Shown: positions 960-35,896 of the stretch, piece by piece
How positions within the stretch are numbered: position 1 is the first letter of the stretch
Layout: every line of letters starts with the position of its first letter
Assembly (NCBI GenBank): GCA_964484805.1
Contig: CAZAGU010000009.1
Coordinates: forward strand, 1 to 37,369
Direction: 5' to 3'
DNA: 37,369 bases
From: an uncultured bacterium
Lineage (GTDB): Bacteria > Electryoneota > AABM5-125-24 > Hatepunaeales > Hatepunaeaceae
Made by a program: the position numbers and the translations under genes
The notes under the pieces: generated by a model
What the model saw: only the letters and a program-made list of their open reading frames with translations
The model's database searches: none
Told to the model about the DNA's origin: nothing

Positions 960-1340
960 TTACAGGCATGAGCGTATCAGAGTTGGTAGCTTCGAACGAC
1001 ACAGTTGACGGTCTCGACAAGCGAACCGTCGTTGCCCGGTTCAGACTGGCGCAACAGGTGGATTGCCACAAGGTTTTGCTTGTTTTTCTGGCTTGTCTCA
1101 TTCGTGAGGCATGGCGTTCTGCAAAGGGCGCATTAAGTAAGTTGATCGGCGTGTTTTTAGCTCGGACAGCCGCACGGGGATTTGCCTCGATGCGATGTGG
1201 AGCTCTACCAATACACAACAGTTGTATCATTAGTGCTCCACAGGGAGTTCTTCACAAGCCTTTGTCACGGGAAGATATTAATTTTACGGTCTTCTTTGGC
1301 TTCGTGAAAGCATGATATGTGACAAACAACAGGGGAATTG
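960..1340. other. GC-rich non-coding island of about 380 bp between lipA and the rbp gene. It could be a structured 5' leader or an unassigned ncRNA.
   Basis: The only ORFs here (823..1230 minus and 968..1315 plus) overlap antisense and have implausible composition. The region contains nested inverted repeats: GTGGAGC...GCTCCAC, GACGGT...ACCGTC and GGGGAattgTCCCC just before the rbp start. It is flanked by AT-rich DNA. Confidence 0.3.
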
Positions 1341-1364
1341 TCCCCATTTCGGAAAAGGCTGAAA

Positions 1365-1640
1365 ATGTTAAACATTTATGTAGGCAATCTGTCCTACAAC
1401 ACCACAGAAGACGATCTTCGCAACATGTTCGAAGCACACGGTCAAGTTGATCGCGTTAGTCTCGTCATTGATCGTGACACCAATCGTAGCAAAGGTTTTG
1501 GATTTGTTGAAATGCCCAATGAAGCTGAAGGCAGAAATGCCATTAGCGCGCTACATGAAACAGAAAAAGATGGTCGCAGAATTACGGTCAACGAAGCCAG
1601 ACCAAAGGCTGATCGTCCTGCTCGTCGCGAACGCTACTAA
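1365..1640 (+). CDS. Small RNA-binding protein with a single RRM domain (glycine-poor Rbp-like).
   Basis: MLNIYVGNLSYNTTEDDLRNMFEAHGQVDRVSLVIDRDTNRSKGFGFVEMPNEAEGRNAISALHETEKDGRRITVNEARPK carries the RNP2 (IYVGNL) and RNP1 (KGFGFVEM) motifs. An AAAAGG RBS precedes the ATG at 1365. The ORF-track start at 1338 is likely too far upstream. Confidence 0.8.
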   Translation: MLNIYVGNLSYNTTEDDLRNMFEAHGQVDRVSLVIDRDTNRSKGFGFVEMPNEAEGRNAISALHETEKDGRRITVNEARPKADRPARRERY

Positions 1641-2647: not shown

Positions 2648-4978
2648 TTATTTTTCGCTGGCAATCTTCCACAACACGTCTTTGGTCTCTTCAACAGACA
2701 TGTTGGCAGTGTTCACGACATAGAATTCAACACGGTCAAGCATCCGCTTCCATTGACGACGCAATGGATCAATGCACTCGTCAATGCGCCCGATGATATA
2801 CTTGTTGTAGAATGGCATCTGCCGCCAGCCGCCCTTTTGGGACATATACGCGCCGTCTTCCAGGCGTTGCAATGCTTCAGTCGAATTCAGCTTATTCACC
2901 TTGCTGGCAAGCTGGTCATTCTGTAGCAAGACAACCTTAGACAGGATAGTCCGCTTGACGTGCTTTTCAGTACTGCCGATCCAATATGGATCAAGCAATA
3001 CCCGCGAATTGCCACGATGCACATAACAACGAGGCTCGCCACGCTTCAAAGGACATCCCTCGCCCAATGGGCAAGAATCGTCGTTTTCTGTTGCAACATT
3101 CTCAAGCTTACTGCGATCAAACAGCCCCGTCAATTCAGGCAGATTTCCAGCAAGTTTGGTGCGGACAAGCATTTTACGCTCGACTGAATCTGCCACGGGG
3201 TTGCCGCCAGCCCAGCGAACGAAAAATCCATTCATGCTGTGCAATTTGGCTTCCTGATGGCGCAACAGCCCGGCGAACTGTGTTGTACCGCCCGTTCCTG
3301 ATGGAGCGATTAGAGCTAATCCCTTGCCATTGACATCAACACAATCGCCGCCAATCATAAACATATCAAAAGCGCGTGTGGCAATGTCGTTCACCATGCC
3401 AAGCGCCATGGCGCGTAGCTGAGGATAGTAGGCAGTATTAAACATCAATCCAGTGCGCGTCTCCTGACTGTAGAAGGCGCTCGGTTCTCGGCCCGGTGCG
3501 CCTTTAACACCGTAAAGTACGCCATGAGGTTCAATGTCAGATTCCAGCGATGCCGGGTACCAGTTCTCCTGCCAGAAATCAATCAAGTGAGATGAATTGG
3601 TCGCGAGCTTCAAAATGATGCCACCGATGCTGACGTTCCACTCGTTGTAATTGTCGTAAGTCAGAACCGATTCGGCTTCCTTGACTAAACCGTCACGCAG
3701 TTGAGGATTAACCTTCGCTTCAAGCCGCACAGACTTATAAACCTTTGTACTTGTGTTTCGGATAGATTTTCTCTGGGCGCGAATTGTCGGCTTAAGATTT
3801 GCCAGACCTTCAGTGAGGCGATCCATAGCCTTCTCGAGATTTTCCATTGATGAGGCGTAGGAGATTCTGATGAATCCATCCATACCAAAAGCTTCACCCG
3901 GAACTACGGCGACATGAGCGTGTTTCAGAAGATAATAAGCCAGCCCAGCAGAATTCCGGATCGGCATTCCTTCAAACTGCTTCTCAAAATAATGCGATGT
4001 GTTTATGTAGAGGTAAAACGCACCTTCTGGCTTATAACATGAACAATGCGGAAGGCTATTCACGCGATAAAGCAGAGCATTTCGCCGCCGTTCAAACTCG
4101 GCAGTCATGCGGGTAATCTCGTGCTGAGGACCTGACAAAGCTTCAACACCTGCCCATTGTGCCATCGAGTTTGGGTTGGATGTTGAATGCTCCTGAACCT
4201 TTGTCATTCCACCGATAAGTTCTTCGGGACCCACTGCATAACCGAGCCGCCAGCCTGTCATGGCATAAGCTTTGGAAAATCCGTTGATAATTAAAGAATT
4301 GTTGCGGACTTTTTCACCAAATGAACACACAGACTTGTATCGGAAACCATCATAGACGAGCTTCTCATAAATCTCATCCGAAATGATTATTATCCCTTCA
4401 TCCATGCAAACATCAATTACTTTTTCAAGCTCAGACGCTGAGTATGTTGCGCCTGTGGGGTTTGATGGGTTATTGAGAATGATTGCCTTAGTCCGGGCGG
4501 ACATGGCACGACCCAAGTCTTCAGGTGTGACTTTGAATCCGTTTTCTTCTTTGGTGTTCACAAAAACGGGAACACCCTTGGCGAGGCTCACCATGTGGGG
4601 ATAAGACACCCAGTAGGGGACAGGGATCAGTACTTCATCACCTTTATTGAGCAACGCGATACAGGCATTGTAGAGCGCCTGTTTAGCTCCTGTGCAGGCT
4701 ATGACATTTTCTAGTTTGTAATCCGCCCCATATTCCTCGCGGAATTTACGCACAATAGCTTTCCTGAGTTCGGGAATCCCGCAGGTCGCTGTGTACGTCG
4801 TCTGATTTCTATCAAGAGCAGCTTTAGCCGCCGCTTTAATGTTTTCTGGGGTAGGGAAGTCCGGTTCGCCAACCGACAGGTTGATTATGTCAATTCCCTC
4901 TTGACGCATCTGCCGCGCTTTAGCGTTGATGCGTAAGGTGGAAGAGAAACCAATTCGTTGAATTCTATCTGCAATCAT
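2648..4978 (-). CDS. Two-domain protein: class-I (aspartate/aromatic) PLP-dependent aminotransferase fused to a C-terminal HPr-kinase/PEPCK-like P-loop domain with a degenerate Walker A.
   Basis: Single 776-aa ORF. The N-terminal ~400 aa carry aminotransferase motifs (NLSVGEPDFPTP, NPSNPTG, SFSKAYAMTGWRLGY, RISYASSMENLEKAMDRL). There is no Met and no stop between the domains. The C-terminal ~370 aa contain VDVNGKGLALIAPSGTGGTT, which resembles the HprK C-domain pattern V.V.G.GVLI.G.SG.GKS but with the Walker A lysine replaced by Gly. It might instead be two genes if a GTG start near 3760 is used. Confidence 0.6.
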   Translation of the reverse strand: MIADRIQRIGFSSTLRINAKARQMRQEGIDIINLSVGEPDFPTPENIKAAAKAALDRNQTTYTATCGIPELRKAIVRKFREEYGADYKLENVIACTGAKQALYNACIALLNKGDEVLIPVPYWVSYPHMVSLAKGVPVFVNTKEENGFKVTPEDLGRAMSARTKAIILNNPSNPTGATYSASELEKVIDVCMDEGIIIISDEIYEKLVYDGFRYKSVCSFGEKVRNNSLIINGFSKAYAMTGWRLGYAVGPEELIGGMTKVQEHSTSNPNSMAQWAGVEALSGPQHEITRMTAEFERRRNALLYRVNSLPHCSCYKPEGAFYLYINTSHYFEKQFEGMPIRNSAGLAYYLLKHAHVAVVPGEAFGMDGFIRISYASSMENLEKAMDRLTEGLANLKPTIRAQRKSIRNTSTKVYKSVRLEAKVNPQLRDGLVKEAESVLTYDNYNEWNVSIGGIILKLATNSSHLIDFWQENWYPASLESDIEPHGVLYGVKGAPGREPSAFYSQETRTGLMFNTAYYPQLRAMALGMVNDIATRAFDMFMIGGDCVDVNGKGLALIAPSGTGGTTQFAGLLRHQEAKLHSMNGFFVRWAGGNPVADSVERKMLVRTKLAGNLPELTGLFDRSKLENVATENDDSCPLGEGCPLKRGEPRCYVHRGNSRVLLDPYWIGSTEKHVKRTILSKVVLLQNDQLASKVNKLNSTEALQRLEDGAYMSQKGGWRQMPFYNKYIIGRIDECIDPLRRQWKRMLDRVEFYVVNTANMSVEETKDVLWKIASEK

Positions 4979-5136
4979 GGCTGTATTACACCGTAAAATG
5001 TAATTAATTTCTACGCGAAAAGCATGCTGAACTTTTCGTCAATGAACAGAATAGCCCCTATTGATGAACAGGGGCTTTCTGAATTCTCATTAACAGACAA
5101 AGAACATTGAATAAACTCTTAATCTAAAGTAAAAAT

Positions 5137-6570
5137 TTATTGTTCTTCAACTTCTTCTGTTACTTCCTTGGTTTTTCCACCAAGTATGTCTTTGCCGGTT
5201 AAAGTCTTTAAAATTACAGGAAGCTGAGCCATTATTTCTGCTGTCATGCCTGTAAGCTTACTCGCACCGGAAGCCCCGTCGCCAACCATTACAATCTTTT
5301 CGATCCTAGACATAGGTTCAGCGATAGATTTGAGCATCTCAGGCGCTTTTTCCAGAGCCATCTGGTAAATAGCCGCTTCATTGTAGTTGGCAAATGATTC
5401 GGCTTTAGCCTGCATAGCTTCTGCTTCAGCGATACCAAGCTTACGGGTGTACTCAACACGGCTGATTCCCTGCTGGCGAGTGACCTCAACCTGAGCTTCG
5501 CCTTCTGCAAGATTGGCTTTCGCACGACCTTCAGCTTCTGTAGTAAGGCGGTATTTCTCAGCATCAGCATCAATTTGAATCTGAATCCGGCGAGCTTCTG
5601 CGGGTTTGTGAATGGTTGATTCGAGTTCTAGCTCACGGCGCAGAATCTCTTTTTCTTCAACCTTAATCGCGGATTCTTTTTCAACCAGCTTAGTGTGATA
5701 CTCGGCTTGCTTTAAATCTGCGTTGACCTTGTTTCTTTCAAGATCATAAGCCAGATCAGACATTGCTTTACGCTTGTTAATATCAATCTGATATTCAGTG
5801 CGCTTGACTTCGTAGTCCTTGTTGGCTTCAGAAATCTGAGTCTCAACCTGGAATCTTACGATGTCCCCTTCTTTGCGAGCTTCGGCTGTTTTGATCGTCG
5901 TGTCGCGTTCTGCTTCAGCCTGTGCAACAGCAGCGTCGCGTTTAACCTGGGCTATTCTGGGAAGACCGAGAGAAGAAATGTAACCTTGCGAATCGGCAAT
6001 ATCCATCAGATTGAAGGAAATTACAACTAAGCCCATCCGACTGAAATCACCAGCGGCTTCTTTTCGCACCTTCTGAGCGAAAACATCGCGATTCTGATAG
6101 ATTTCCTCAACTGTCATTGATCCGATGATATTGCGAACAAAACCTTCGAGAATATGCTCGGTTACCTCTTTAATGGCGCTTGCGCCACCACTAAGGAATT
6201 GTTCAGCAGCACGCATGATGGAAATCTCATCCGACGCAACTTTAACCTGTGCGGCAGCTTCTGCAACGATGTGAACACCTTGTTTTGTTAAAACTTCGGG
6301 TGTTTTTACAGGAATAGTGTAAGTCTCAAGTGAAAGTTCTTGAGTGGATTCGATGAATGGTTTGACGAATGTACCGCCACCAATTTGCATCCTATATCCA
6401 ATCTTACGCTTCGTTCCATCTGTGTCTTGAACTACTCGTTTTTTACCACCAGAAACGATTAGAACTGTGTTAGGTCCAACCTTTTTGTACTGCTTGGCAA
6501 AGGCGAATATAAACAGCCCACCTATTACGACAACGACACCAATCAAAATCAGAATGGTCGTCAGATCCAT
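5137..6570 (-). CDS. Flotillin-like SPFH/band-7 domain membrane protein.
   Basis: N-terminal TM helix (ILILIGVVVVIGGLFIFAF), then an SPFH core, then a long Ala/Glu-rich coiled-coil (AEAERDTTIKTAEARKEGD...EAEGRAKANLAEGEAQ). This is the typical flotillin architecture. Confidence 0.75.
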   Translation of the reverse strand: MDLTTILILIGVVVVIGGLFIFAFAKQYKKVGPNTVLIVSGGKKRVVQDTDGTKRKIGYRMQIGGGTFVKPFIESTQELSLETYTIPVKTPEVLTKQGVHIVAEAAAQVKVASDEISIMRAAEQFLSGGASAIKEVTEHILEGFVRNIIGSMTVEEIYQNRDVFAQKVRKEAAGDFSRMGLVVISFNLMDIADSQGYISSLGLPRIAQVKRDAAVAQAEAERDTTIKTAEARKEGDIVRFQVETQISEANKDYEVKRTEYQIDINKRKAMSDLAYDLERNKVNADLKQAEYHTKLVEKESAIKVEEKEILRRELELESTIHKPAEARRIQIQIDADAEKYRLTTEAEGRAKANLAEGEAQVEVTRQQGISRVEYTRKLGIAEAEAMQAKAESFANYNEAAIYQMALEKAPEMLKSIAEPMSRIEKIVMVGDGASGASKLTGMTAEIMAQLPVILKTLTGKDILGGKTKEVTEEVEEQ

Positions 6571-10733: not shown

Positions 10734-12242
10734 ATGGCCGATAAAGTTAGTTCGAGATCCCCAGGGTCTATTATATTTGAGATAATTGCCGTAGTTCTGG
10801 TGATTGGTGTAATTTTTGCAATTATCACCCCGCAGAGCCAATGGAAAAAGCAAGCGGCGAAAACAGTAGTATGCCAGTTGAGTATGGAGAATGTTTACTA
10901 TGCTTCAAATTTCTACTACCGTAGCACTGGCAAATACACTGATAATCTGGCAGAAATGCTGACGTATGCCGAGCGAGAGTCCATTCTAGTTCATCCTGCA
11001 GGATTCAAACTTGACAGACTGACTCGTGAAGATACTGGAATTGATTCATTTCAGATTGATTACTTTGATCCCTATGGGCTGTTCAACCATTTTGAGTCTG
11101 TGATTGAAGCGAAATTTATCGGGGCGAAGCATGATTCGCTTGTCCTGATAACCAAGCCGAAAGCGCAGTATAGATTCCTTTCGCCAACAATGTACACCTT
11201 CGCCGCCGATGGACCAATAACAGCGACAGTTGACGACAGAGGCTCACAAGGCAAGTTTATGTTAGTGGGTTCTCAAGGCAAGATTCGTCGCCAGCAGATA
11301 CTTGGCGAAACAATGCGTGTTCCTGCCGCGAAGTACATCTACAATTCTGAGCCCGGTGCGGACATTGCGAAATGCCCATCAACTCACACGTCCTATCAAT
11401 TATATCTAAACGTCAAACTGGCGATAAACGCCGAAATGACAGGCACATTGTATGATGAAGTGGCTGACACAATTGCCACGTTGTCCTCATCCGAATTGTT
11501 CTCCACAATTGTTGTGTATCGTTGGCTGAAACAAGCTGATGCTTTTGCCAATGCTGAGCTGGTGCGGGAGAAGGCGTTTGAAATGATCGAGGATTCGATT
11601 ATCACCCTGCGCGGAGATGAATTCATCGCCAAGCGTGTCGCGACTTTAAACTCAGCCGGCAATGAACTTCTCGCCGGGGCTATTTCAGATTCGCTAGTTG
11701 AAAGTACGGCTCTGACAGAAGACAAAGACAAAGAAGAATGGGAAGTCATTCGCGAAGAGTTGTATGCCTTAATGAATGGTTTAAGGAATGATGCTGATTT
11801 TGCAAAACAACGAGATGACATTGTAAATGATAAAAAAACTGCCATAGCTAAAACAACTTTCGAAGAGAACATTGCAAAAGTTCTCAGTTCTAAAGAACTC
11901 ATTGTTTCCGAGTCCGGCATCATCAACACCATTACTGATTCAATTGACTACTACTCAAATGAAGATTTGATTAAAAACCGTTTGTTGAAGGTCAAAAAAG
12001 ACTCGGTGACTATCTCATATTTGAAGCGCGATGACATTCAGGAGCTTTTCAATCGCCTTGGTTATGTTGAAGGGTATAAAGTTGGCAGAATTGATTCTGT
12101 TGGTTTGTCGATTACCTGTCCGATTGAAGGCAAATTTGTTTCACCTGAGCGTTCCATACTCGAAAAAATGTTCTTCGTGGAGGGTGAGTCCAACCACGGC
12201 CACGTGAAAAATGGCGACTTGTCATGGGATGAGAAACGCTAA
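10734..12242 (+). CDS. Large (502 aa) type IV prepilin-like protein with a canonical class III signal peptide.
   Basis: MADKVSSRSPG|SIIFEIIAVVLVIGVIFAIITPQ has a short basic leader ending in Gly, Glu at +5, and a ~20-residue hydrophobic helix. This is the prepilin peptidase substrate signature. The large C-terminal domain has no recognisable motifs. Confidence 0.6.
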   Translation: MADKVSSRSPGSIIFEIIAVVLVIGVIFAIITPQSQWKKQAAKTVVCQLSMENVYYASNFYYRSTGKYTDNLAEMLTYAERESILVHPAGFKLDRLTREDTGIDSFQIDYFDPYGLFNHFESVIEAKFIGAKHDSLVLITKPKAQYRFLSPTMYTFAADGPITATVDDRGSQGKFMLVGSQGKIRRQQILGETMRVPAAKYIYNSEPGADIAKCPSTHTSYQLYLNVKLAINAEMTGTLYDEVADTIATLSSSELFSTIVVYRWLKQADAFANAELVREKAFEMIEDSIITLRGDEFIAKRVATLNSAGNELLAGAISDSLVESTALTEDKDKEEWEVIREELYALMNGLRNDADFAKQRDDIVNDKKTAIAKTTFEENIAKVLSSKELIVSESGIINTITDSIDYYSNEDLIKNRLLKVKKDSVTISYLKRDDIQELFNRLGYVEGYKVGRIDSVGLSITCPIEGKFVSPERSILEKMFFVEGESNHGHVKNGDLSWDEKR

Positions 12243-12392: not shown

Positions 12393-13673
12393 ATGAAACA
12401 AGTCAAACGGGGCGATTCTATGAGCGATTGCCTGGTAATTACCTGGGATAGCAGTGAACTCTGCTTGAGCCGTTTTCCTTGGCAAGGAACATGGCAAAGT
12501 CCCGCACATTCTCTACTTTCTAAAGTGTCATTGCTACGCCCGACTCGCATTGAACGAGCGCTGATAGCTTCCACACGTGAGAGTTTGACGAGTGCGCTTC
12601 GAGAGGTTTTTGTTGGCAATGAAACCGATCTACCAATCTGGTTTCTAATCCCGCCTTCATGGACGTTTTCTTATATTGTTCAATGTCCAGAACTACCATC
12701 CCAAGAAGCTACTCTCGATCATTTGATCTGGGAGAGTATTCAGCGCATCAATGGAGATGTCACACCCTACAGAATGTTGGCTCCTCACGCAGGCGCTGGC
12801 GCATGTGAGGTCATCTCAGTTCGCGGAAAATTGATAGATTTGATTGCTGAAGCTGCCTCTTCAGCCGATATTGTCCTTGATGGCATTAGTGTTCAGCCTA
12901 TTCAGGATGATATTTATTTTCTGGAGCCTTCGAGGGATCTGAGAAAAGCCGAACCGCTGATCGAGGAGAGTGACACCGAATATCTAAGCGGAACCTCTTC
13001 TCGCCGTGTGCCTATCTTTGCCTTCGTGATTATCTTCTTTGCTATGATCTCGCTTGGTATTTATTGGTTTTTATATTCCGGTAACGATCAACAACCCGAG
13101 ATGGCATCAAAGGATATAGAGCAGACTGCTCCAGACTCAGACGGTTTAACTTCTGAAATTTCAATGGATATGGAAGGCCCAACAGATTCTTCATTGACTA
13201 AGGTGGAAGAAGAAGCGTACATGCCGCCCAGTGTGTCGGTCAATCCTCTTCGTGGTGTTTGGCAGAGCTTGCCTGCCGGGGCTGCGATTGAATTCGTCGT
13301 TATTTCTCCAGCGGATATGAGGATGGAAATTTCAGGCTTGGTAAACAGCGCTCAATGGCTGGAGAAAACCAGAATGTTGCGATCCCTTTCTGAAGTAAAG
13401 ATTGATGGACGCTTTGACGGTTTCGCCGGGAAATCAATCGCAATGGTTCACCTCTCAAGGTGTGGCTTTTCCGAATCATCTGGCGCAAACAGCCTGACCA
13501 CATTTAACAAACTTGCCACTTCATCCGGTATGACTGTTGGGAAAAAGCAAACAGTCTGGGGAAGTTTCGAGAGCGCTGTTAAACTGGTCGAGCAACTTTG
13601 GGACAATCCAAACGGGATACAGAAGCTTTATATCTTCCCTGAGCAACAGCGATGGGGAGTAACTTTCCGTTAA
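12393..13673 (+). CDS. Hypothetical bitopic membrane protein with GspL/PilM-N-like topology: cytoplasmic N-domain, one TM near residue 210, periplasmic C-domain.
   Basis: The single hydrophobic helix VPIFAFVIIFFAMISLGIYWFLY sits mid-protein. The N-terminus (DCLVITWDSSELCLSRF) weakly recalls PilM/GspL actin-like N-termini. It lies directly downstream of the prepilin-like gene. Alternative start at 12420. Confidence 0.35.
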   Translation: MKQVKRGDSMSDCLVITWDSSELCLSRFPWQGTWQSPAHSLLSKVSLLRPTRIERALIASTRESLTSALREVFVGNETDLPIWFLIPPSWTFSYIVQCPELPSQEATLDHLIWESIQRINGDVTPYRMLAPHAGAGACEVISVRGKLIDLIAEAASSADIVLDGISVQPIQDDIYFLEPSRDLRKAEPLIEESDTEYLSGTSSRRVPIFAFVIIFFAMISLGIYWFLYSGNDQQPEMASKDIEQTAPDSDGLTSEISMDMEGPTDSSLTKVEEEAYMPPSVSVNPLRGVWQSLPAGAAIEFVVISPADMRMEISGLVNSAQWLEKTRMLRSLSEVKIDGRFDGFAGKSIAMVHLSRCGFSESSGANSLTTFNKLATSSGMTVGKKQTVWGSFESAVKLVEQLWDNPNGIQKLYIFPEQQRWGVTFR

Positions 13674-16710: not shown

Positions 16711-17931
16711 TCATGGTTTGACTTGCTCTTTTTGCTGGTAGTAGTTGTCAAAGCGCTTCTTGAATTGCTCAATGCTTTCTTTCACAGTTTCTTGTCTCTG
16801 GTGGTCTTCCATCTTTGTTTTAATGCGTTCTGTCAGAGTTGGGATTAAATCTGCCCGCAGAACAATGATAAGCTCTTTGCGGATGGTGTTGCTACTGACA
16901 TAACCAAAAACATACCGTAGCCCAAAGAACCACCAAGGGAGATCTTTTAGGATTGGCACTCCTTCACGTGTTTGACTGTCTTCATTGACGTAAAGCCCTC
17001 CGATCATCGTCTCTTCTCCATCAAGAAGAAGGACGGATGTCCGGGCCGAAGTTTTTTTAACCTCTATCCCAAGTTCGCTACTGCTGGCGTTGCTCCGTTG
17101 AACGTCAACCTGAAGATGGACGAAAGTAACCGTGTCTTCATTCTCAACCACTGTCAGTATATCGGGGGTTACCATGATAATTGATCCGGTCGAGAAGAAT
17201 TGCGTGACTGTATTGCCCGAAAAATCCTGCGTGGTCACTGAAAAATCACTGCCAATCTGAATCCTGCCTTCGGAGCCGGATTGCACCACAATCTGAGGGT
17301 TGGCGAGAATGTCACCGAGTTGTTTGCTCGCCATTGCTTTGAAAATTGTAGTCAGTGTGCCAAAGTCCAGGTCCTTGAGCGTGTTGAACTCGATCAAGCC
17401 GGATTTATTGTCAGCCGTGGTCATGTCAATTGACAGGTCTGTGCCATCAGAAAGATTCCAGCTGGAACCCATCTGAGAAAGGTCGCTGCTGTTGGCTTCA
17501 AAGAACAGTGCCGAGATGGACACCTCGCGAGTCTCAAATAGCTCGCGCGAAGTTCGAGTTTTCTCGTTGATAGTCTGGATTTTATACCGCTGGATTATGA
17601 AATGATCGTCGAATTCCTTAATTTCCAATCCGAAGTTCTCCAGTACGAGATCGAGCGCATCCAGCCAGTACATGTTATTTATATCCACGCCAATCGCGCC
17701 GTCTGTGCTTGTGGGATCAACGATAATCTTGCCGCGATAGCGTTTGGCAAGGTCATCAAAAACTACCAAAGCCTGCTTAAACGAGACGTTGCGCGTCATT
17801 GAAATCATCTCATCCTTTGATGCTTTCATTTTCGCCAGAGATCTGGCGCCTCGGCTCTCGGTGTGAGCAGGATTGACCAGAGGCTGAATGCAGAACAGAA
17901 GAATGAAAACAGTGATGTATTTCCAGTTCAT
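16711..17931 (-). CDS. pilQ: Type IV pilus secretin PilQ (short form).
   Basis: Signal peptide, an N0-like domain, and the secretin C-domain (GEETMIGGLYVNEDSQTREGVPILKDLPWWFFGLRYVFG). It is last in the pilM-N-O-P-Q gene order. Confidence 0.75.
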   Translation of the reverse strand: MNWKYITVFILLFCIQPLVNPAHTESRGARSLAKMKASKDEMISMTRNVSFKQALVVFDDLAKRYRGKIIVDPTSTDGAIGVDINNMYWLDALDLVLENFGLEIKEFDDHFIIQRYKIQTINEKTRTSRELFETREVSISALFFEANSSDLSQMGSSWNLSDGTDLSIDMTTADNKSGLIEFNTLKDLDFGTLTTIFKAMASKQLGDILANPQIVVQSGSEGRIQIGSDFSVTTQDFSGNTVTQFFSTGSIIMVTPDILTVVENEDTVTFVHLQVDVQRSNASSSELGIEVKKTSARTSVLLLDGEETMIGGLYVNEDSQTREGVPILKDLPWWFFGLRYVFGYVSSNTIRKELIIVLRADLIPTLTERIKTKMEDHQRQETVKESIEQFKKRFDNYYQQKEQVKP

Positions 17932-17945
17932 GTATTGAAATCCCC

Positions 17946-18839
17946 TTATTTTTCAGAAAAACCAAGACCAAGTTTGAACCGCTCGATGATCCCGCCCTTG
18001 TTGAGTGTAAACTCAACGATATTGTTGCGCGTGTCTATTCTGGTCATATAGCCCAGATAGACAGGATCACCCTCCTTGAGCACATGAAGCTGTCCTTCAT
18101 GATCGGCAATGATGGCGCGATCTGGCAGAATAACCCGTAGCTCTGCCCGTTCTGCTTCCAGAGCGCCATAAGTGTTCGGTGGCAGTGTGCGAGTGATCTC
18201 TGGCATGAAGATATTTCTGCCATCGGGAACGGTCAATCCCGCCAGTGTAGCTTCACGCACAGGCAGATCGGGAACATCAGCATATAATGCCCGCATTTGA
18301 ATTTCAAACGGGACGAGAATCTTGGGTACAGACATTAGATTTTTGGGGCCTTCGTCGCGAATACTTTCCACCCCGTGCATGTTCAAGCGGTCGATAGCAT
18401 AAACGCCCGGTCCCTTCTCCAGCGACCAGATTAACGACATGATGGATTCAAATGCGCCTTCACCAGCGATAACAATGATCTTATATCCATAACCACTGGC
18501 ATCAACTTCTTTGGTGGTATTTATAGCAAATTCGATTGACCCATAGCGGCGTTGAATCTGGTCAAGGTAGGTGAAAACTTCAGCCATGGAAACATCAGTA
18601 GTTATGACCTTGTCCAGATTGAGGATTCGATGTTTATTCTCTTCTATCGCTTTCTGGATGTCTTCAAGATATATTGCTCGCGCAGGAATCGCCGCTTCCA
18701 AGCTATCAAAGTGAGCAATCTCGAACTGCACGGTTTCCCTTTGGCTTGGGTAATACATATAAAGCACGTAGAAGCCACCAGCGCTCAATAGTAACACCAG
18801 AGTTATCAGGAAGAGTGTGTTCCTAAGTTTGAATGACAT
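17946..18839 (-). CDS. Pilus assembly protein PilO/PilP-like: N-terminal TM followed by a periplasmic domain.
   Basis: N-terminal TM helix (LFLITLVLLLSAGGFYVLYMY). Placed between the pilMN fusion and pilQ. The domain assignment rests on position and topology only. Confidence 0.5.
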   Translation of the reverse strand: MSFKLRNTLFLITLVLLLSAGGFYVLYMYYPSQRETVQFEIAHFDSLEAAIPARAIYLEDIQKAIEENKHRILNLDKVITTDVSMAEVFTYLDQIQRRYGSIEFAINTTKEVDASGYGYKIIVIAGEGAFESIMSLIWSLEKGPGVYAIDRLNMHGVESIRDEGPKNLMSVPKILVPFEIQMRALYADVPDLPVREATLAGLTVPDGRNIFMPEITRTLPPNTYGALEAERAELRVILPDRAIIADHEGQLHVLKEGDPVYLGYMTRIDTRNNIVEFTLNKGGIIERFKLGLGFSEK

Positions 18840-18840
18840 A

Positions 18841-20478
18841 TCAGCTCCCGCTCTTCGGAATTAGCTCGGCTTCAATCTCAAAGCGATATACGCGGCGCTC
18901 ACGGATTTCCTGCACTTCAACGGTGTTTAACTTGGCATTCCCAAGCTTATCGACGAATTCAGGGATTTTGGAGCGCGATATAGAATAACCCTGCATGACG
19001 ACTTTATCGCCCTCCGAGGCGTTAAAATCGGTAAACCATATCCCCCAGGTTTCTTCTGAAAGACGCATTAATTTCTCGATGAATGATCCGAATTTGTCTG
19101 TGCCGCTAAAAAGCGAATCGACAATGGCTAGTGATTTCTCATATTCAGCGAGTATGTTCTGCTGGACTTCAATCTGCTCCTCTATTTCAGCCACCCGAAG
19201 CGTGATCTCCTGTTTGTTTTTCAGGGTGTTTTTCATTCCATTCAAATCGAGCGCCATGCGATGTTGTCTTACCAGTGAGAAGGCAATAATGACAGGAATC
19301 AAGCCCAGTAGAATCCAACCGGGAGTAGAAATCATCAAGCGGTTCTGGCTCTCCCTGACAATAACAGGGGTGAGGTTAATCTGGCAGACACAGCGGTCGG
19401 GCTCCATTGCCCGCAAAGCTGCGCCTAATGCGGTAGAGTAGGGACCCAGAGAATCGCTCTTGACATTTTCCAATTCGCTCAGATTGAAGCTGTTAAAGCT
19501 GACCTGTTCGACGGGAACAGATTTTCCTGAGCCGTCGGTGAGATACTCCTTGACCCCAAGCGAAAAGTTGCTGTCGAAATATTCCTGCACGTCGCTATTA
19601 AAGTACTCATGCAAGCCCAACTCATACGCTTGACCTGTCAGCACGACGCGATCAATGCGTGGCAGATCGAGAGTGTCGAGGTCATACAACAGACGGCTGT
19701 AAAGAGTGCTCATTGCTCCGGCGGTATCGGCGCCTTCGCCGATGATTGATGAGATGTGGAGGATTTCTCGTCCGCGCAGGAAGATGAAGCGGCTATGTTC
19801 AGAAGTAACGTGAAGTATCAGTGTGATTGTTTCTTCTGCCGGGTCGTAGGTATCAACGACCAGATTGACCAGCGACAGGTCAGCGCTTTCGACAAAGGCA
19901 ATTTGAGGAAAACGCTTGTGCGTGAGCTTCTGGGCTTCATTCAGGATGTTAAACAGCGGTAATTCCCCTGATCGGATAATTCCCAGTACTTTTCCTTCGG
20001 CGAGTCTGGCGAAGTCAACCGAATCACGGGGAACTTCTGATAATTCCTCGTTGTTGGTGAGGAATTCCTGCTGAACTTTCTTCAGTAGCTTATTTCCAGA
20101 TAAATCCCAATCTGTGTCGAATGTATTGTAAAACACCTGTGGTTCGCCAACTGAAAAACCGATTCTGGTCTTACGATCTGCTACCATAGCGATGATGTCA
20201 ACCAGAGCGGTTGTGCCATTGTCAGAGTCGAACACGCTTGCAGACTCTTCGGTAAAATTCTGTTCTTCACCGGCGATGATGTCAATGGATTGTCTTTCAA
20301 TCGTATGGGAAGGCTCATGGCGCGTTTCAGCGACCTTGAGAGTAGATGCGCGCAGTCTGTAATGGCGGAGATCAAGTATTTTTACCCCATCATTACTGTG
20401 CTGGATTTTTACCACCCTGAGAGAATTTCCTTCATGGCTTACTCCAACCGCGAATTTTGCAACTCTTTTATTACTCAT
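18841..20478 (-). CDS. pilM: PilM-PilN fusion: actin-like cytoplasmic PilM domain, single TM, PilN periplasmic domain.
   Basis: 545 aa. The N-terminal ~380 aa are PilM-like. A TM helix (GWILLGLIPVIIAFSLV) near residue 390 is followed by a coiled-coil and a PilN-like C-terminal region. The gene sits immediately upstream of the pilO/P and pilQ genes. Confidence 0.65.
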   Translation of the reverse strand: MSNKRVAKFAVGVSHEGNSLRVVKIQHSNDGVKILDLRHYRLRASTLKVAETRHEPSHTIERQSIDIIAGEEQNFTEESASVFDSDNGTTALVDIIAMVADRKTRIGFSVGEPQVFYNTFDTDWDLSGNKLLKKVQQEFLTNNEELSEVPRDSVDFARLAEGKVLGIIRSGELPLFNILNEAQKLTHKRFPQIAFVESADLSLVNLVVDTYDPAEETITLILHVTSEHSRFIFLRGREILHISSIIGEGADTAGAMSTLYSRLLYDLDTLDLPRIDRVVLTGQAYELGLHEYFNSDVQEYFDSNFSLGVKEYLTDGSGKSVPVEQVSFNSFNLSELENVKSDSLGPYSTALGAALRAMEPDRCVCQINLTPVIVRESQNRLMISTPGWILLGLIPVIIAFSLVRQHRMALDLNGMKNTLKNKQEITLRVAEIEEQIEVQQNILAEYEKSLAIVDSLFSGTDKFGSFIEKLMRLSEETWGIWFTDFNASEGDKVVMQGYSISRSKIPEFVDKLGNAKLNTVEVQEIRERRVYRFEIEAELIPKSGS

Positions 20479-20479
20479 G

Positions 20480-21745
20480 TCAGAACCTCTGCAGTAGTTG
20501 TTGCATCATGCGTTTGTTGTTAGCAAAATTCATTGCTGTTTCCTGTGAAATCTTATTCTCCCTGACCAGATTGATTAAATCCTGCTCCATTGTGATCATT
20601 CCAAATTTTGAACCCTCATTAATCATCTGGTAAATCTCGCCAATGTTACGATTTTTAATGGCTGAACGAATTGATGGCATCATAACCATGATTTCTTTCG
20701 CCAGCACACGCTTTCCATCCTTGCTGGGCACAAGCTTCTGCGAGATGACACAACGTAGAATATCGCCGAGACGATTGCGAACACGATCCTGTGCGATTGG
20801 CGGCATTTCGCCGATCACTCGCTCGATACTCTCGACGGCAGAAGAAGTATGCAACGTCGAAAAAACCTTATGCCCACTGTCTGCCGCTTCCAAGCCAGCC
20901 AGGACAGTGTCCGGGTCGCGCATTTCGCCGATGACAATGATGTCAGGGTCTTGACGGAGTGCTTCAACTGTGCCGGATTTGAATGACTGAGTATCTCTGC
21001 CGACTTCACGGTGGCGTATAATGCAACGCTGTGAATGATGGACAAATTCGACTGGTGAGGCGATGATGACGATATGCCCATCAATAGTGCGGTTATTCAT
21101 GTCAATGATAGCGTCAAGGGTTGTGCTTTTCCCAGAACCAGTGATTCCAGTAACCAGAATCAGCCCTTCTTTGGTGTGTGTCAGGCTGAGCGATTGCTGG
21201 AGGAAGGGATGAAAGTTAAAACCTTCAAAACTTCTGATTTGTGTCTGGATTGATCGCATGTTTAAGGCAAGTGAGCCAAGGTCGAGGTAGATGTCGGCTC
21301 GATTGCGGTGAACAACGCCATCCTTGCCGCGGAAATGATAGGAGAAGTCCAGATTGCTGTTTTCGTACAGGTGTGAACGTTGATCCTCGGTCAACAAATT
21401 CTGGATCAGAATGTCGAACTCCCCTGTTTCGTATCTGCCGAAAGCGGTGAAAGGTTTTTTCGCACCGTGTATCCTAAACCATACCGCGCCACCGGCTCCC
21501 CAGCCGCCAAGGTCTATATCTGAAGCTTCGCGTCGGCGCATTTCACTCAAGCAGTAGTCCACAAATTCTTTAAGCATCAGCCGGTCTTTGTCTGGCAATC
21601 GCCCGATAATTTCTTTCCCGATAAACATCTGTCGTTCGAGGCTCTGCATCGTTTGCGGAACACGATTGGAAAGACGCTGGAGTGCGGCTTTAATGATGCC
21701 AATATTGATGCTTAGAGTTGGTTTTTGATTCATCATTCCCACCAT
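20480..21745 (-). CDS. pilT: Twitching-motility retraction ATPase of the PilT/PilU family, with a ~70-aa N-terminal extension.
   Basis: Walker A LVTGITGSGKSTTLDA, Asp box, Walker B IIVIGEMRD, His box STLHTSSAVESIERV. It lacks the PilB-type zinc-binding N-domain. The start may be a few codons downstream (Met at 21733/21736). Confidence 0.8.
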   Translation of the reverse strand: MVGMMNQKPTLSINIGIIKAALQRLSNRVPQTMQSLERQMFIGKEIIGRLPDKDRLMLKEFVDYCLSEMRRREASDIDLGGWGAGGAVWFRIHGAKKPFTAFGRYETGEFDILIQNLLTEDQRSHLYENSNLDFSYHFRGKDGVVHRNRADIYLDLGSLALNMRSIQTQIRSFEGFNFHPFLQQSLSLTHTKEGLILVTGITGSGKSTTLDAIIDMNNRTIDGHIVIIASPVEFVHHSQRCIIRHREVGRDTQSFKSGTVEALRQDPDIIVIGEMRDPDTVLAGLEAADSGHKVFSTLHTSSAVESIERVIGEMPPIAQDRVRNRLGDILRCVISQKLVPSKDGKRVLAKEIMVMMPSIRSAIKNRNIGEIYQMINEGSKFGMITMEQDLINLVRENKISQETAMNFANNKRMMQQLLQRF

Positions 21746-22989
21746 GCCACAAGTTTGAGCGCTCTGACGAATGGGTAATTGGGCGGACTGGCGGCAGCAA
21801 GCCGCAGGTCATAGTGGTAGCGTTTGGAGAAGCCTGTCGCAATCTCGCCGGACCACCAGGAGAATGTTCCAACAGGCCCCCGTTCGTTCTGACCAATGCT
21901 TCCAGTCAGGTTCAATGCTCCTGAATTTGGGCGGGTTGAGTAGTCTTCAGCGTAAAATTTATCTCCAGCCATAATACTGGCGTTAATATTTATGTCGCTG
22001 TTATTTGCGGCATTGTTGGTTATGATAACATCATCAGCCGAAACCAGCCCCAGCAAGTCGTTTGAATTTGGATTAGCGCGTGGATCATCGGCGTAAACCA
22101 TATCATTATCAATCCAGATGTCTGCCCCTGAATACAATGTCACTGAACCGTTTAGAGTGCCTTGAACGTGTATGTCACCAGCGCAATAAATGACCCCAGT
22201 GGGTGCAATTGAAGCGACAGAAACCGTGTCAGGCGCTCCACCGTCAACGATGCGAATGACATTGCCATTTGGGAGAAATTCCAGACTAATGTCAACATCG
22301 TAGAGGCATTTTGTGTTCATTGTGGCTCCTGCGTTTCCTGCTACAGCGGCGTTGTGAAGTGGTGTCATATCCGTTGGCAAAGAAACATCCACACCGACCT
22401 CCCAACCGCCGTAGTACTTTGCTCGATTTCTTCGGCTGGTTGGGCTGGGGCTGAAGCCAAGTCTTGCCGTTACTTTTCCGTAAAACACTGGTGATCCGCT
22501 GGTTTTAATGGCGCTGTTGCAGTGCATCGGTCCTTCGACAGTGTCGCCGGAAATCCAGTATATATTGCTTGCGGCTGTGTTGACGAACCAGAAATAATTC
22601 GACACTGGTGTATGGTAGGCGAAATAGGCATAAATGGAATCTCGCAGGGACAAAGCTTTGCCGTCGGTGGCATATTGTTCTTCATCGTAAACTGCTGTTA
22701 TGGTGGTAACTTTGACAAAGACTGTGTCTAAACCCAGTGTGTCAATGACGACTAACGAAGTGCATGGGGGAGCAATAATGCTTAGTGTGTCTGACATGGC
22801 GTCATCTGCCCAGACATGGTTGATGCCAATGTTCATCGCGTTCATGGCGTTCTCGTGGAGAATAGTCTCCATGTAGCGACGGTTGAAGGCGCTCGAGGCT
22901 TCAACTGTCAGCTTGCTGAGTTGCATCTGGTACAATGAAAAAATCATTGAAATAGCAGCTACATAAATTAACGCTCCTTTCCCGAACAT
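21733..22989 (-). CDS. Hypothetical protein with an N-terminal hydrophobic helix, possibly pilus-associated (PilX/PilY-like position).
   Basis: 418 aa. The N-terminus MFGKGALIYVAAISMIFSLY is pilin-like but lacks Glu5. No recognisable catalytic motifs. It is embedded between the minor-pilin-like genes and pilT. Confidence 0.4.
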   Translation of the reverse strand: MFGKGALIYVAAISMIFSLYQMQLSKLTVEASSAFNRRYMETILHENAMNAMNIGINHVWADDAMSDTLSIIAPPCTSLVVIDTLGLDTVFVKVTTITAVYDEEQYATDGKALSLRDSIYAYFAYHTPVSNYFWFVNTAASNIYWISGDTVEGPMHCNSAIKTSGSPVFYGKVTARLGFSPSPTSRRNRAKYYGGWEVGVDVSLPTDMTPLHNAAVAGNAGATMNTKCLYDVDISLEFLPNGNVIRIVDGGAPDTVSVASIAPTGVIYCAGDIHVQGTLNGSVTLYSGADIWIDNDMVYADDPRANPNSNDLLGLVSADDVIITNNAANNSDININASIMAGDKFYAEDYSTRPNSGALNLTGSIGQNERGPVGTFSWWSGEIATGFSKRYHYDLRLAAASPPNYPFVRALKLVAWWE

Positions 22990-22998
22990 AAGCCCCTC

Positions 22999-23679
22999 CT
23001 ATCGTCTTAAATTCTTAGATATTACTCTGGTCTGCCGCCAGTATGATGCGCTTATCAATCTTTGAAGCATGACAATGCGTTCATCGGGATTTGCAGCCGC
23101 AAGTAGCTCGCTGCTGCGATAGATGTCAGGGTTCACGCAGATTAGAGTAACTTCAACCATTTTGGTTGCATCAACAATCGGCGCGGGTTGACCGATCTGA
23201 TCGAGATAGCGGAAAACTGAATTGTTGGCGATCAACCCGACAATACCGGTAACTGGAGTCTCCTGGGTTACCGAAACTGTTCGCGTGATGCTGTACATAA
23301 CCAGCGATGTATCGACGAAAACGACGGTGTCAAAAGGTGCGATCACATACTCGATGGTGTCTGGAACCTCATCCATGTGGAGATTCCCATGAATGTTAAA
23401 AAAGTAATCACGTTCTTTGTTCAGGTTGCTGATGAACTTCAAGTGTGTCGGCTGTGCGGTGACCAGAATAGTGTTTTGCTGAGATTCAGGGATGCCAAAG
23501 CCCATCTTCCGCAGGTCTTCCTGTAATATCTGGTTCAGATCAGCAAGTTCAATCTGCGCGATAGCATCGGCATTATAGTTGATAAAATGCTGAGTGGCGT
23601 TGTCGATGGCTTTAATTCCGACCAAAAGCAGGACTGAACCAATCATTGACGCTACTAATATGTCCCAGATTGTTCCCAT
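22999..23679 (-). CDS. Minor pilin-like protein.
   Basis: MGTIWDILVASMIGSVLLLVGIKAI has an N-terminal hydrophobic helix after a Gly, the pseudopilin-like architecture. It is located in the pilus operon. Confidence 0.4.
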   Translation of the reverse strand: MGTIWDILVASMIGSVLLLVGIKAIDNATQHFINYNADAIAQIELADLNQILQEDLRKMGFGIPESQQNTILVTAQPTHLKFISNLNKERDYFFNIHGNLHMDEVPDTIEYVIAPFDTVVFVDTSLVMYSITRTVSVTQETPVTGIVGLIANNSVFRYLDQIGQPAPIVDATKMVEVTLICVNPDIYRSSELLAAANPDERIVMLQRLISASYWRQTRVISKNLRR

Positions 23680-23686
23680 TACACCC

Positions 23687-24226
23687 TCAGTTGTAGAACC
23701 AGTAACTGACCACAGTGCTGATTCTTAATGTGTCTCGCATCCTTGCATTGCCGTTCATCGAGTAAATCATCGGTGGATTAAAGGCATCGCTGACGCTGAT
23801 TGTTACTCGTTTGTGCCATTGCCGCAAATCGGAATGCACTATCGCCCCTGAAGAAAGCCTGACGTATTCGACATTGTAGTCAACATGGTAAATCACACCG
23901 CTTATTCCAGTGTCCACCACTGTTGTCCCGTGCAGGTCATCAATGTCATCAACGACGGTGCTGTCATCGGCATCCCAGCCGAAATGTGCGGGCAGAGCGA
24001 AATCGCCGAGTGCCTTCTCTGAAGTAATGTCGGTTGAAACTTCGTCGAAGAAGTACTGTGAGAGTTGCTCAATATGGGAAGTCAGCACGGATAGCCCTTC
24101 AAGATGAAACCGGCTGAAATCCAGTGAAGTGCTAATATCGTTGGATGTCCGATAAAAGTTCATCACTAATACTGAAATCAACATCAATGCCCCGATGGTT
24201 AAAACAGATTGTCCTGTGCCACCCAT
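23687..24226 (-). CDS. Minor pilin-like protein.
   Basis: Start taken at the internal Met (MGGTGQSVLTIGALMLISVLVMNFY), which avoids overlap with pilB. It has an N-terminal hydrophobic helix. The ORF-track start at 24313 would overlap pilB by 77 bp. Confidence 0.4.
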   Translation of the reverse strand: MGGTGQSVLTIGALMLISVLVMNFYRTSNDISTSLDFSRFHLEGLSVLTSHIEQLSQYFFDEVSTDITSEKALGDFALPAHFGWDADDSTVVDDIDDLHGTTVVDTGISGVIYHVDYNVEYVRLSSGAIVHSDLRQWHKRVTISVSDAFNPPMIYSMNGNARMRDTLRISTVVSYWFYN

Positions 24227-24236
24227 GATTACCTCA

Positions 24237-26081: not shown

Positions 26082-26121
26082 TGTTCTTCTTTGCCTTTTC
26101 CTTTACTTGGATGTCCGAAAG

Positions 26122-35338: not shown

Positions 35339-35672
35339 ATGTGCCGCCGCGAGTGTGTCGTCGGGGTTGTTGGAATGGGCTATGTAGGATTGCCGCTCGC
35401 GCTGGAGTATGCAGAAAAAGGCTTTTCTGTGCTTGGATTTGATATAGATGTGAAAAAAGTCGGAGCGCTCAATTCCGGCGAAACCTACATCAAGCATATC
35501 CCGAAGCACGCAATAAAAGCCGCTGTCGATAGTGGAAAGCTCGTGGCGACGACGGACTTGCAATGGACTTCAGGGTGTGATGCAATACTAATCGCTGTGC
35601 CAACGCCACTGCCTTCACACACTACGCCTGCACCCAAATTCATGGATGCAGGACGCAGAGCGATAGGCCCAG
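35339..35672 (+). pseudogene. Nucleotide-sugar dehydrogenase (UDP-glucose/GDP-mannose dehydrogenase family) N-terminal fragment, interrupted after about 110 aa.
   Basis: VVGVVGMGYVGLPLALEYAEKGFSVLGFDIDVKKVGALNSGETYIKHI...ILIAVPTPL...AIGPGL matches the NAD-binding Rossmann N-domain of the TviB/WbpA/Ugd family (GxGYVGLPLA, VPTP). Similarity stops at ~35672, where the TTTTTACA repeat tract begins. The rest of ORF 35339..36055 is read-through with no similarity. Confidence 0.6.
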
Positions 35673-35675
35673 GGC

Positions 35676-35708
35676 TTACATTTTTACATTTTTACACGGT
35701 TTTTTACA
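35676..35708. repeat. Tandem TTTTTACA repeats (about 4 copies) at the dehydrogenase/insert junction.
   Basis: cTTACATTTTTACATTTTTACAcggTTTTTTACAct. It overlaps the stop codon of the minus-strand 62-aa gene. Confidence 0.6.
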
Positions 35709-35892
35709 CTCTTGCTTTAACTTCATCAAGGAGTACTTCGCAATGTGCCTTTATGTTTGAAGAGTTGGAATGCAAGCCAGCAAGGTATTTATACCCTTCG
35801 GAACCTTCGTCTAAGCTACACATCATGGCATTTACCTCGTCATCAAGCTTTTTAAGCTCTCCAACGATATATTCTAAAAAATCTTTGTCCAT
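35704..35892 (-). CDS. Small hypothetical protein (62 aa) downstream of the PrimPol-like gene.
   Basis: MMDKDFLEYIVGELKKLDDEVNAMMCSLDEGSEGYKYLAGLHSNSSNIKAHCEVLLDEVKARV. AAGGA lies upstream of the ATG. It starts 5 bp after the PrimPol stop. The ORF-track version 35704..36063 is extended upstream into the PrimPol gene. Confidence 0.45.
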   Translation of the reverse strand: MDKDFLEYIVGELKKLDDEVNAMMCSLDEGSEGYKYLAGLHSNSSNIKAHCEVLLDEVKARV

Positions 35893-35896
35893 CATT

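Follow-up and report, generated by a model that had tools for sequence, protein, structure and literature searches.

An aspartate aminotransferase fused to a compact, degenerate PEPCK-fold domain in uncultured bacteria

Introduction

Oxaloacetate is a product or substrate of aspartate aminotransferases (AspATs) and also a substrate or product of phosphoenolpyruvate carboxykinases (PEPCKs). The known class-Ib aspartate/prephenate aminotransferases (1BJW, Thermus; 6F35/6F77, Rhizobium; 5WMH, Arabidopsis PAT) consist of one domain and are about 385-410 aa long, unless they carry a plastid transit peptide, and none has a C-terminal PEPCK-like domain. Here we describe a gene from an uncultured bacterium of the Hatepunaeaceae (Electryoneota) in which such an aminotransferase, aligning end to end with these structures over residues 1-395 (E 1e-95 to 1e-109), continues in frame into a compact domain of PEPCK fold. 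We call this domain mini-PEPCK; in the protein studied here it lacks the Walker A lysine. The gene lies on contig CAZAGU010000009.1 of assembly GCA_964484805.1, whose positions 1 to 37,369 were analysed as a whole and are referred to below as the window.

Two families of known structure come close to the C-terminal half. ATP-dependent PckA (PEPCK_ATP, PF01293; 1AQ2 from E. coli, 1II2 from T. cruzi) has ~540 residues against about 360 in mini-PEPCK, which is ~180 shorter: the first ~90 residues of PckA, including Arg65, and the last ~75 are missing, a Cys-rich loop stands in place of a hairpin, and the domain is fused to an aminotransferase. The C-domain of HPr kinase/phosphorylase (HprK, PF07475) superimposes on mini-PEPCK over 134 residues but has neither the PEPCK N-lobe nor the C-terminal elements that mini-PEPCK retains, and the window protein lacks the Lys-Ser-Glu signature of HprK.

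Pseudoenzymes commonly act by binding active paralogues. In the pairs PDX1.2/PDX1 and BAM9/AMY3, a degenerate paralogue under selection is co-encoded with, or bound to, the active enzyme that it modulates. The mini-PEPCK is likewise degenerate, selected and, in most lineages, encoded beside an active-looking PEPCK of 612 aa; unlike in those pairs, the partnership is suggested only by the position of the genes and by a single domain fusion. Among non-catalytic PEPCK folds, the nearest precedent is NDUEG2, an accessory subunit of complex I of Euglena gracilis (PDB 8J9H), with degenerate C-terminal ATP-binding elements (PMC10884005). NDUEG2 belongs to a eukaryotic, mitochondrial respiratory complex and has neither an aminotransferase fusion nor a flotillin/PEPCK operon. 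The fusion described here, though unexpected for central metabolism, does not amount to a new kind of system.

Results

A PEPCK-like domain follows the aminotransferase in a single reading frame

An earlier note on this DNA, made from the letters alone, had proposed an aspartate aminotransferase fused in frame to an HprK/PEPCK-like P-loop domain without the Walker A lysine, and our analysis bears this out. The 776-aa open reading frame (ORF) is present as described, with one terminal stop; it lies on the minus strand, which the note did not state. After the aminotransferase half the frame stays open for 388 more residues. The note had read this extension as free of both stop and Met: there is indeed no stop, but the C-terminal half holds 11 Met, the first being residue 512, so that the Met-free stretch extends ~120 residues past the junction.

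Searched alone against Pfam, NCBIfam, PHROGs and PDB sequences, the C-terminal half gave nothing significant, and the window domain had no match at E <= 1 to the Pfam and NCBIfam PEPCK models. A word-indexed search with the C-terminal 376 residues returned 8 fragments only, and all of those reaching upstream carry the aminotransferase tail. This result was misleading on rarity and was corrected by a genome scan and an exhaustive hidden Markov model (HMM) search. The HMM search, over 1.84 billion representatives, yielded 310 relatives (about 310 cluster representatives) in three groups: standalone proteins of 360-410 aa, forms of ~550 aa, and an 899-aa protein, P0030, which joins a mini-PEPCK module to a genuine PEPCK_ATP domain (Pfam E 1.9e-48).

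We built a family profile from 30 sequences, and it was at this level that the affinity proposed by the note emerged. The profile matched HPr-kinase structures with E 1.9e-5 over the strand and P-loop region. Compared by hhalign, it aligned over 270 columns with the P0030 PEPCK module (97.9% probability, E 4.9e-13) and over 327 columns with E. coli PckA (94.4%, PckA residues 93-466). The standalone relatives match an NCBIfam PEPCK subfamily model with E down to 8e-14, scoring 17-51 bits against PEPCK cut-offs of 26.5 (Pfam) and 369 (NCBIfam); they also show weak Hpr_kinase_C and HprK-related matches. The resemblance of the P-loop to those of HprK and PEPCK is thus far beyond chance.

AlphaFold2, run on the 30-sequence alignment, gave a model with pLDDT 93.9 and pTM 0.92. 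The 8-sequence alignment gave a poor model (pLDDT 62.6, N-lobe disordered), which was kept out of the fold searches. The top 35 Foldseek matches in the PDB were all ATP-dependent PEPCKs (E about 1e-16; TM 0.70-0.78, query-normalised), and the modelled domain has a two-lobe PEPCK topology that superimposes on the solved enzymes. On the strength of the hhalign, AlphaFold2 and Foldseek results, the C-terminal domain is a compact but complete PEPCK fold, in the same superfamily as HprK and not an HprK-type module. By model cut-off, C-domain core and GxSGxGKSE signature, it falls outside HPr kinase/phosphorylase (PF07475, TIGR00679). Membership in ScmC (TIGR04249) or the HprK-related kinases A and B (TIGR04352, TIGR04355) was rejected: the standalone relatives score 12-32 bits against cut-offs of 125-200, and the window domain has no match to these models.

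The domain family goes unrecognised by the curated libraries Pfam, NCBIfam and PHROGs; domain and fusion are a new family and a new architecture within a known superfamily. We found no description of the domain family, the fusion or the operon in curated libraries or in the searchable open-access literature.

The catalytic residues of PEPCK are largely lost

The state of the active site was read from residue equivalences to E. coli PckA (Table 1). In place of the Walker A pattern GxxxxGK[ST], the window protein has the loop APSGTGGTT within VDVNGKGLALIAPSGTGGTT, with Gly564 at the position of the lysine, as the earlier note had seen. Among K213, H232, K254, T255, D268 and D269, only T255 is kept, and no counterpart exists of the N-terminal PckA segment that bears the oxaloacetate-binding Arg65, the alignment beginning at PckA residue 93.

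Table 1. Active-site positions of E. coli PckA with their counterparts in the standalone relatives and in the window protein
PckA residue	Standalone relatives	Window protein
Y207	Y	Y517
K212	K	R522
K213 (Mn2+ ligand)	S	A523
H232 (Mn2+ ligand)	H	G543
S250	S/T	S560
K254 (Walker lysine)	K	G564
T255	S/T	T565
D268	D	M582
D269 (metal ligand)	D	N583
K288	R	R606
R333	R	R659

K254, D269 and K213 are essential to phosphoryl transfer and metal binding in PckA. According to PDB titles, mechanistic mutants of the E. coli enzyme that have been crystallised include K254S, D269N and K213S. By their residues, the standalone relatives look active. In the window protein the Walker lysine, the surviving metal ligands, the first kinase-2 Asp and the Arg65 segment are all missing, which makes canonical PEPCK or kinase chemistry very unlikely. 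The earlier note had left open whether the domain is phosphotransfer-dead or of altered specificity; the losses beyond the lysine (the equivalents of His232, Asp268 and Asp269, and the Arg65 segment) strengthen the former. Under an operational definition (fold kept, catalytic residues lost, purifying selection), the domain qualifies as a putative pseudoenzyme.

A side observation concerns the P-loop in other branches. P0091, a 754-aa relative of the ~550-aa type, carries an intein (Pfam Intein_splicing, E 1.5e-16) directly after its Walker-A sequence APTGTGKS. Inteins are typically inserted at functionally critical sites, and this position speaks for an essential P-loop in those branches of the mini-PEPCK family that are not fused.

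Lysine loss marks one clade of a widespread fusion

We scanned one genome per GTDB species and found relatives in 273 genomes, all of them metagenome-assembled genomes (MAGs), from Calditrichota, KSB1, Zixibacteria, Aminicenantes, Planctomycetota, Gemmatimonadota, Latescibacterota, Ignavibacteria/Bacteroidota, TA06 and other phyla. The architecture, rightly called non-standard by the earlier note, is unannotated, yet not rare. The exact window protein is on record at NCBI. Public records name the fused proteins only 'pyridoxal phosphate-dependent aminotransferase', and the domain is otherwise hidden as 'hypothetical protein'.

The two domains share one stop-to-stop ORF at 79 of the 80 retrieved loci, the sole exception being truncated by a contig end, and the linker region is found in all fused homologues. 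A split form with two adjacent genes, whose existence the note had raised, was not found among the 80 loci. One 400-aa protein, P0009, came up as a standalone close relative and was rejected: it begins 15 bp from the end of a 1.5-kb contig and is thus a truncated call, not a true standalone form.

Of 81 fused proteins, 58 carry Lys at the Walker-lysine position, 11 carry Arg and 12 carry Gly. We rooted a neighbour-joining tree on the standalone forms; in it the fused proteins are monophyletic, and the 12 Gly-class proteins (the window protein and those of loci L001-L010 and L035; mostly Calditrichota) make up a single clade that is nested within lineages bearing Lys. The loss of the Walker lysine is therefore a single derived event. 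Degeneration is not confined to this clade. The fused proteins as a group are partly degenerate, with K212 replaced by R, H232 by R (or kept as H) and D268 by N, while most retain K254 and D269; the Lys-bearing ones are also without equivalents of His232, Lys213 and Lys288. The Asp at the D269 position is kept in nearly all fused proteins, with Glu in L034. Within the Gly clade it is D in 9 and N in 3 (the window protein, L003 and L004), and this variation after loss of the lysine suggests relaxed catalytic constraint. The family thus grades from standalone forms that appear to be active, through fused proteins that are degenerate in part, to a fully Lys-less pseudoenzyme clade, and is a natural system in which to study how the fold of a central-metabolism enzyme is repurposed.

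Other parts of the domain have changed little. Between L008 and L010, two members of the Gly clade, the ratio of non-synonymous to synonymous substitution rates (dN/dS) comes to about 0.07 in the C-terminal domain, against about 0.08 in the aminotransferase half: the C-terminal domain is under strong purifying selection. ERK, ENV, LDRG, DPYW, H.KR and the Cys-rich loop are fused-clade-specific motifs and essentially invariant. All members of the 8-sequence alignment have the ERK triad, which is also nearly invariant across the 81 fused proteins (DRK in L046), and DPYW and H.KR are near-invariant signatures of the clade; the degenerate loop GTGG[ST]T is conserved within the Gly clade. Invariant motifs together with purifying selection are the signature of a functional pseudoenzyme, not of decay.

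The Cys-rich loop, a possible metal site, contains three Cys that are invariant in the 8-sequence alignment (C236, C242 and C251, domain numbering). The window protein has 3 Cys here and most fused orthologues have 4 (C-x6-C-x6/7-C-x8-C). The first is missing in the window protein, L001 and L002, and other Cys positions are substituted in L008, L010, L061 and L067. Among the standalone forms the loop is variable, being present in some and absent in others.

The aminotransferase half looks intact

The note had recognised a class-I pyridoxal phosphate (PLP) aminotransferase in the first ~400 residues, and the searches concur. Pfam Aminotran_1_2 (PF00155) matches residues 30-388 with E 1.2e-78 (265 bits against a 19.7-bit cut-off), and NCBIfam aspartate transaminase models align to residues 2-395, the best being PRK06107 with 423 bits. 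Equivalog cut-offs are not reached, either by PRK06107 (423 against 617 bits) or by the archaeal AspAT model (415 against 550). The best solved relatives are the AspATs 6f35/6f77 (E about 1e-109); others are the Phormidium and Thermus AspATs and the Arabidopsis aspartate/prephenate aminotransferase.

Aligned with 6f35, the PLP lysine is K236 (nt 4271-4273) in FSKAYAMTGWRL, and the motif S-K-x-x-x-M-T-G-W-R is present. K99 in TGAKQA, which we take to be the subgroup-Ib residue recognising the distal carboxylate, and R371, the alpha-carboxylate arginine, in FIRISYA also align with the solved AspATs. The tail noted earlier, RISYASSMENLEKAMDRL, occupies residues 371-388. The domain looks fully competent, and its most probable substrate pair is aspartate/oxaloacetate.

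The fusion gene usually lies with genes for flotillin and a divergent PEPCK

We clustered flanking ORFs across loci to define the genomic context. A flotillin orthologue lies upstream on the same strand at 62 loci; it is within 500 bp at 52 of 63 assessable loci, usually with a gap of 3-30 bp and often of 3 bp. Among assessable loci, a flotillin gene <=500 bp upstream on the same strand occurs in 38/44 of the Lys class, 10/10 of the Arg class and 4/9 of the Gly class. The second recurrent neighbour, which encodes a 612-aa protein of the PEPCK_ATP family (Pfam E 5e-26), is either the next gene downstream on the strand of the fusion gene, after a gap of about 5-60 bp, or stands just past the flotillin gene. 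It is found within 6 kb in 22/26 loci of the Lys class, 7/8 of the Arg class and 2/5 of the Gly class.

By BLASTP against E. coli PckA, the 612-aa protein retains Y207, K212, K213, H232, K254, D268, D269, K288 and R333. It is highly divergent, with 30% identity to E. coli PckA over only 156 residues and 92 bits on the Pfam model; an example is L052, 9182-11018 (among L037-L080). This protein could stand for a PEPCK subtype, as yet uncharacterised, that is typical of Aminicenantes, Zixibacteria, KSB1 and related MAGs.

P0030 offers a further link between the two kinds of domain. Its mini-PEPCK module, with a degenerate P-loop (GSSENDIATH), is fused to a full PEPCK sharing 41% identity with the 612-aa neighbour type, a Rosetta-stone hint of physical association. 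The P0030 gene (loci L085 and L086; 6001-8700) stands in an archaeal-looking context with V4R, Robl_LC7 and TFIIE-like neighbours and has no aminotransferase or flotillin gene nearby. At the five sampled loci of catalytically intact standalone relatives we found no recurrent neighbour and no aminotransferase, PEPCK or flotillin gene nearby, and the context therefore gives no clue to the ancestral substrate.

In the window, a flotillin gene is the immediate upstream neighbour of the fusion gene, and the spacer between them contains a hairpin that is a possible terminator or attenuator (Table 2).

Table 2. Features of the fusion gene and its upstream region in the window
Feature	Position	Strand	Details
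Complete fusion gene	2648..4978	(-)	776 codons, stop at 2648-2650; ORF listing, translation with single terminal stop
Class-Ib aspartate (/prephenate) aminotransferase domain	3794..4978	(-)	residues 1-395
Inter-domain linker KPTIRAQRKSIRNTSTKVYKSVR	3725..3793	(-)	residues 396-418; DNA read directly, no stop, no frameshift
Compact PEPCK-fold domain (mini-PEPCK)	2651..3724	(-)	residues 419-776 (~358 residues); matches E. coli PckA ~93-466
NTAYYPQLRAMALG, counterpart of PckA motif GGTWYGGEMKKG	3398..3439	(-)	Y517, R522, A523; hhalign, Table 1
FMIGGDC	3341..3361	(-)	G543 at PckA His232 position; SIHGA in standalone relatives
Beta-strand and degenerate P-loop VDVNGKGLALIAPSGTGGTT	3281..3340	(-)	residues 547-566; S560, G564, T565
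LHSMNGF, counterpart of PckA kinase-2 IGDDEHG	3224..3244	(-)	M582, N583
DSVERKMLVRT, counterpart of PckA FEGGCYAKT	3158..3190	(-)	R606 = K288
Cys-rich loop CPLGEGCPLKRGEPRC	3026..3073	(-)	replaces PckA hairpin between ENV and Arg333
GNSRVLL-DPYWIGSTEKHVKR	2951..3013	(-)	R659 aligned to PckA Arg333
Flotillin/SPFH gene, immediately upstream of fusion gene	5137..6570	(-)	Pfam Band_7 E 7e-25 and weak Flot match
Hairpin AGCCCCTGTTCATCAATAGGGGCT in 158-bp flotillin/fusion-gene spacer	5053..5076	(-)	10-bp stem; consensus scan

Discussion

With a probability that we put at roughly 55%, the C-terminal domain has a non-catalytic role: as a module for docking or regulation, it would link the aminotransferase, which handles oxaloacetate, to the reaction of PEPCK. 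The aminotransferase domain would interconvert aspartate plus 2-oxoglutarate and oxaloacetate plus glutamate, and the pseudo-PEPCK domain would pair with the intact 612-aa PEPCK paralogue that is encoded nearby in most lineages; flotillin would also belong to the module, possibly as a scaffold. Labile oxaloacetate could then be handed between aminotransferase and PEPCK, or, alternatively, the state of the oxaloacetate/phosphoenolpyruvate node could set the level of aminotransferase activity. Since both enzymes share oxaloacetate and pseudoenzymes tend to bind their paralogues, such a module is the most economical model. What suggests a pairing with the 612-aa PEPCK is the neighbourhood of the genes and one fusion of the two kinds of domain. 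A metabolite-sensing regulatory fusion, as the earlier note had suggested, is itself possible; the conserved operon with flotillin and a real PEPCK points more specifically to coupling with the PEPCK reaction.

Several observations weigh against this interpretation. A tblastn search with the 612-aa PEPCK found no PEPCK gene in the 37-kb window. The linkage to flotillin and PEPCK is weaker in the window's clade (4/9 and 2/5), and here a hairpin separates the flotillin gene from the fusion gene, so that docking to a partner is least supported where the domain is most degenerate. The conserved GTGG[ST]T loop could mean that a phosphate-bearing ligand is still bound, which would favour a sensor over a pure scaffold. 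Aspartate as the substrate is suggested by homology, with equivalog cut-offs missed and prephenate aminotransferases among the closest solved relatives. Finally, the residue equivalences to PckA come from profile alignments (hhalign), not from superposition.

The main alternative, possible but clearly less probable, is that the dead PEPCK cleft serves as an allosteric sensor, binding phosphoenolpyruvate, oxaloacetate, a nucleotide or another phospho-metabolite and regulating the aminotransferase in cis without a partner. The high conservation of the motifs that line the cleft (ERK, ENV, the Arg333 equivalent and, in the Gly clade, GTGG[ST]T, together with DPYW and H.KR) is what a ligand site would lead one to expect, purifying selection on the domain persists, and the window as well as several members of its clade have no adjacent PEPCK gene. 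The Arg333 equivalent, however, is not conserved across the fused proteins, many of which have H, V, Y or I there, and the strong conservation of the operon with a real PEPCK and flotillin in other clades, like the P0030 fusion, argues for a protein partner. Regulation in cis fits the window's clade somewhat better, because there the PEPCK linkage is loose and the glycine-rich loop is conserved.

That the domain is still an enzyme, acting as a phosphotransferase or carboxykinase with non-canonical residues or through a new activity on the aminotransferase product, seems to us improbable. The fold and the cleft residues Y517, S560, T565, R606 and R659 are kept, the Walker lysine and the Asp269 equivalent persist in most fused orthologues, and 'migrated' catalytic residues are known in other pseudo-kinases. 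The window protein has nevertheless lost the equivalents of His232, Lys254, Asp268 and Asp269 together, the Asp269 position varies between D and N in its clade after the lysine loss, and the absence of His232, Lys213 and Lys288 equivalents extends even to the Lys-bearing fused proteins.

Far less credible is an HPr-kinase-type protein kinase/phosphorylase module that would modify an HPr-like protein or the aminotransferase itself. The profile match to HprK structures and the weak HprK-type matches of the standalone relatives would agree with it, but all HprK, HprK-related and ScmC models score far below their cut-offs and the window protein lacks both the Walker lysine and the Ser/Glu that follows it in the HprK signature; we rejected it on structural coverage and model scores. 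An artefact, with two genes joined by a sequencing error or missed stop or a decaying C-terminal part, might be suspected in a metagenome-assembled contig, but is effectively refuted by the single ORF at 79 of 80 independent loci that span many phyla and assemblies (which excludes a frameshift or missed stop at the junction), the dN/dS of the domain, the confident AlphaFold2 model and a linker whose DNA contains no stop.

Returning to the coupling of aminotransferase and PEPCK through the C-terminal domain, a conserved module of flotillin, aminotransferase::mini-PEPCK and PEPCK would tie amino-acid catabolism or aspartate synthesis to the oxaloacetate/phosphoenolpyruvate node. The metabolism of its hosts (Aminicenantes, Zixibacteria, KSB1, Calditrichota and relatives) is inferred from genomes only. 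If the proteins do form a channelling complex, metabolic reconstructions of these sediment and subsurface organisms would need revision, and bacterial flotillins would gain a concrete metabolic client. More doubtful, and put forward tentatively, is the fuller idea that flotillin, the AspAT::pseudo-PEPCK fusion and the 612-aa PEPCK make up a physical, flotillin-scaffolded metabolon, widespread in uncultured FCB- and PVC-related phyla, in which the pseudoenzyme domain, as a heterodimer with its active paralogue, channels labile oxaloacetate between the transamination step and the formation or carboxylation of phosphoenolpyruvate. Were this so, it would provide a bacterial example of a pseudoenzyme as an enzyme-docking adaptor in central carbon metabolism, and of a soluble metabolic pathway organised on a membrane-raft protein.

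Other genes in the window

The rest of the 37-kb window contains no metabolic genes bearing on the function of the fusion; it encodes hrcA-grpE-dnaJ, a type IV pilus/type II secretion system (T2SS) cluster and a sigma-54 two-component system. Downstream of the fusion gene and convergent with it lies a gene for a 100-aa single-RRM RNA-binding protein (1338-1640, plus strand; Pfam RRM_1, E 1.8e-21). The pilus/T2SS-like cluster (16711-27456, minus strand) encodes a secretin, two T2SSE ATPases and a T2SSF platform protein, and includes four sizeable ORFs without a Pfam match (17946-18839, 18841-20478, 21733-22989 and 22999-23679). Two adjacent plus-strand ORFs of 502 and 426 aa (10734-12242 and 12393-13673) have no Pfam match at E <= 1e-5 and are flanked by genes for a ComEA-like HHH protein and an RsmD-type methyltransferase. 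Near the end of the window, a 238-aa ORF (35339-36055, plus strand) matches only the N-terminal NAD-binding domain of UDP-glucose/GDP-mannose dehydrogenases, and its 3' end overlaps a 353-aa ORF without a Pfam match on the opposite strand (35897-36958, minus strand); this may be a gene that is truncated or has a frameshift, or else an antisense ORF that is spurious.

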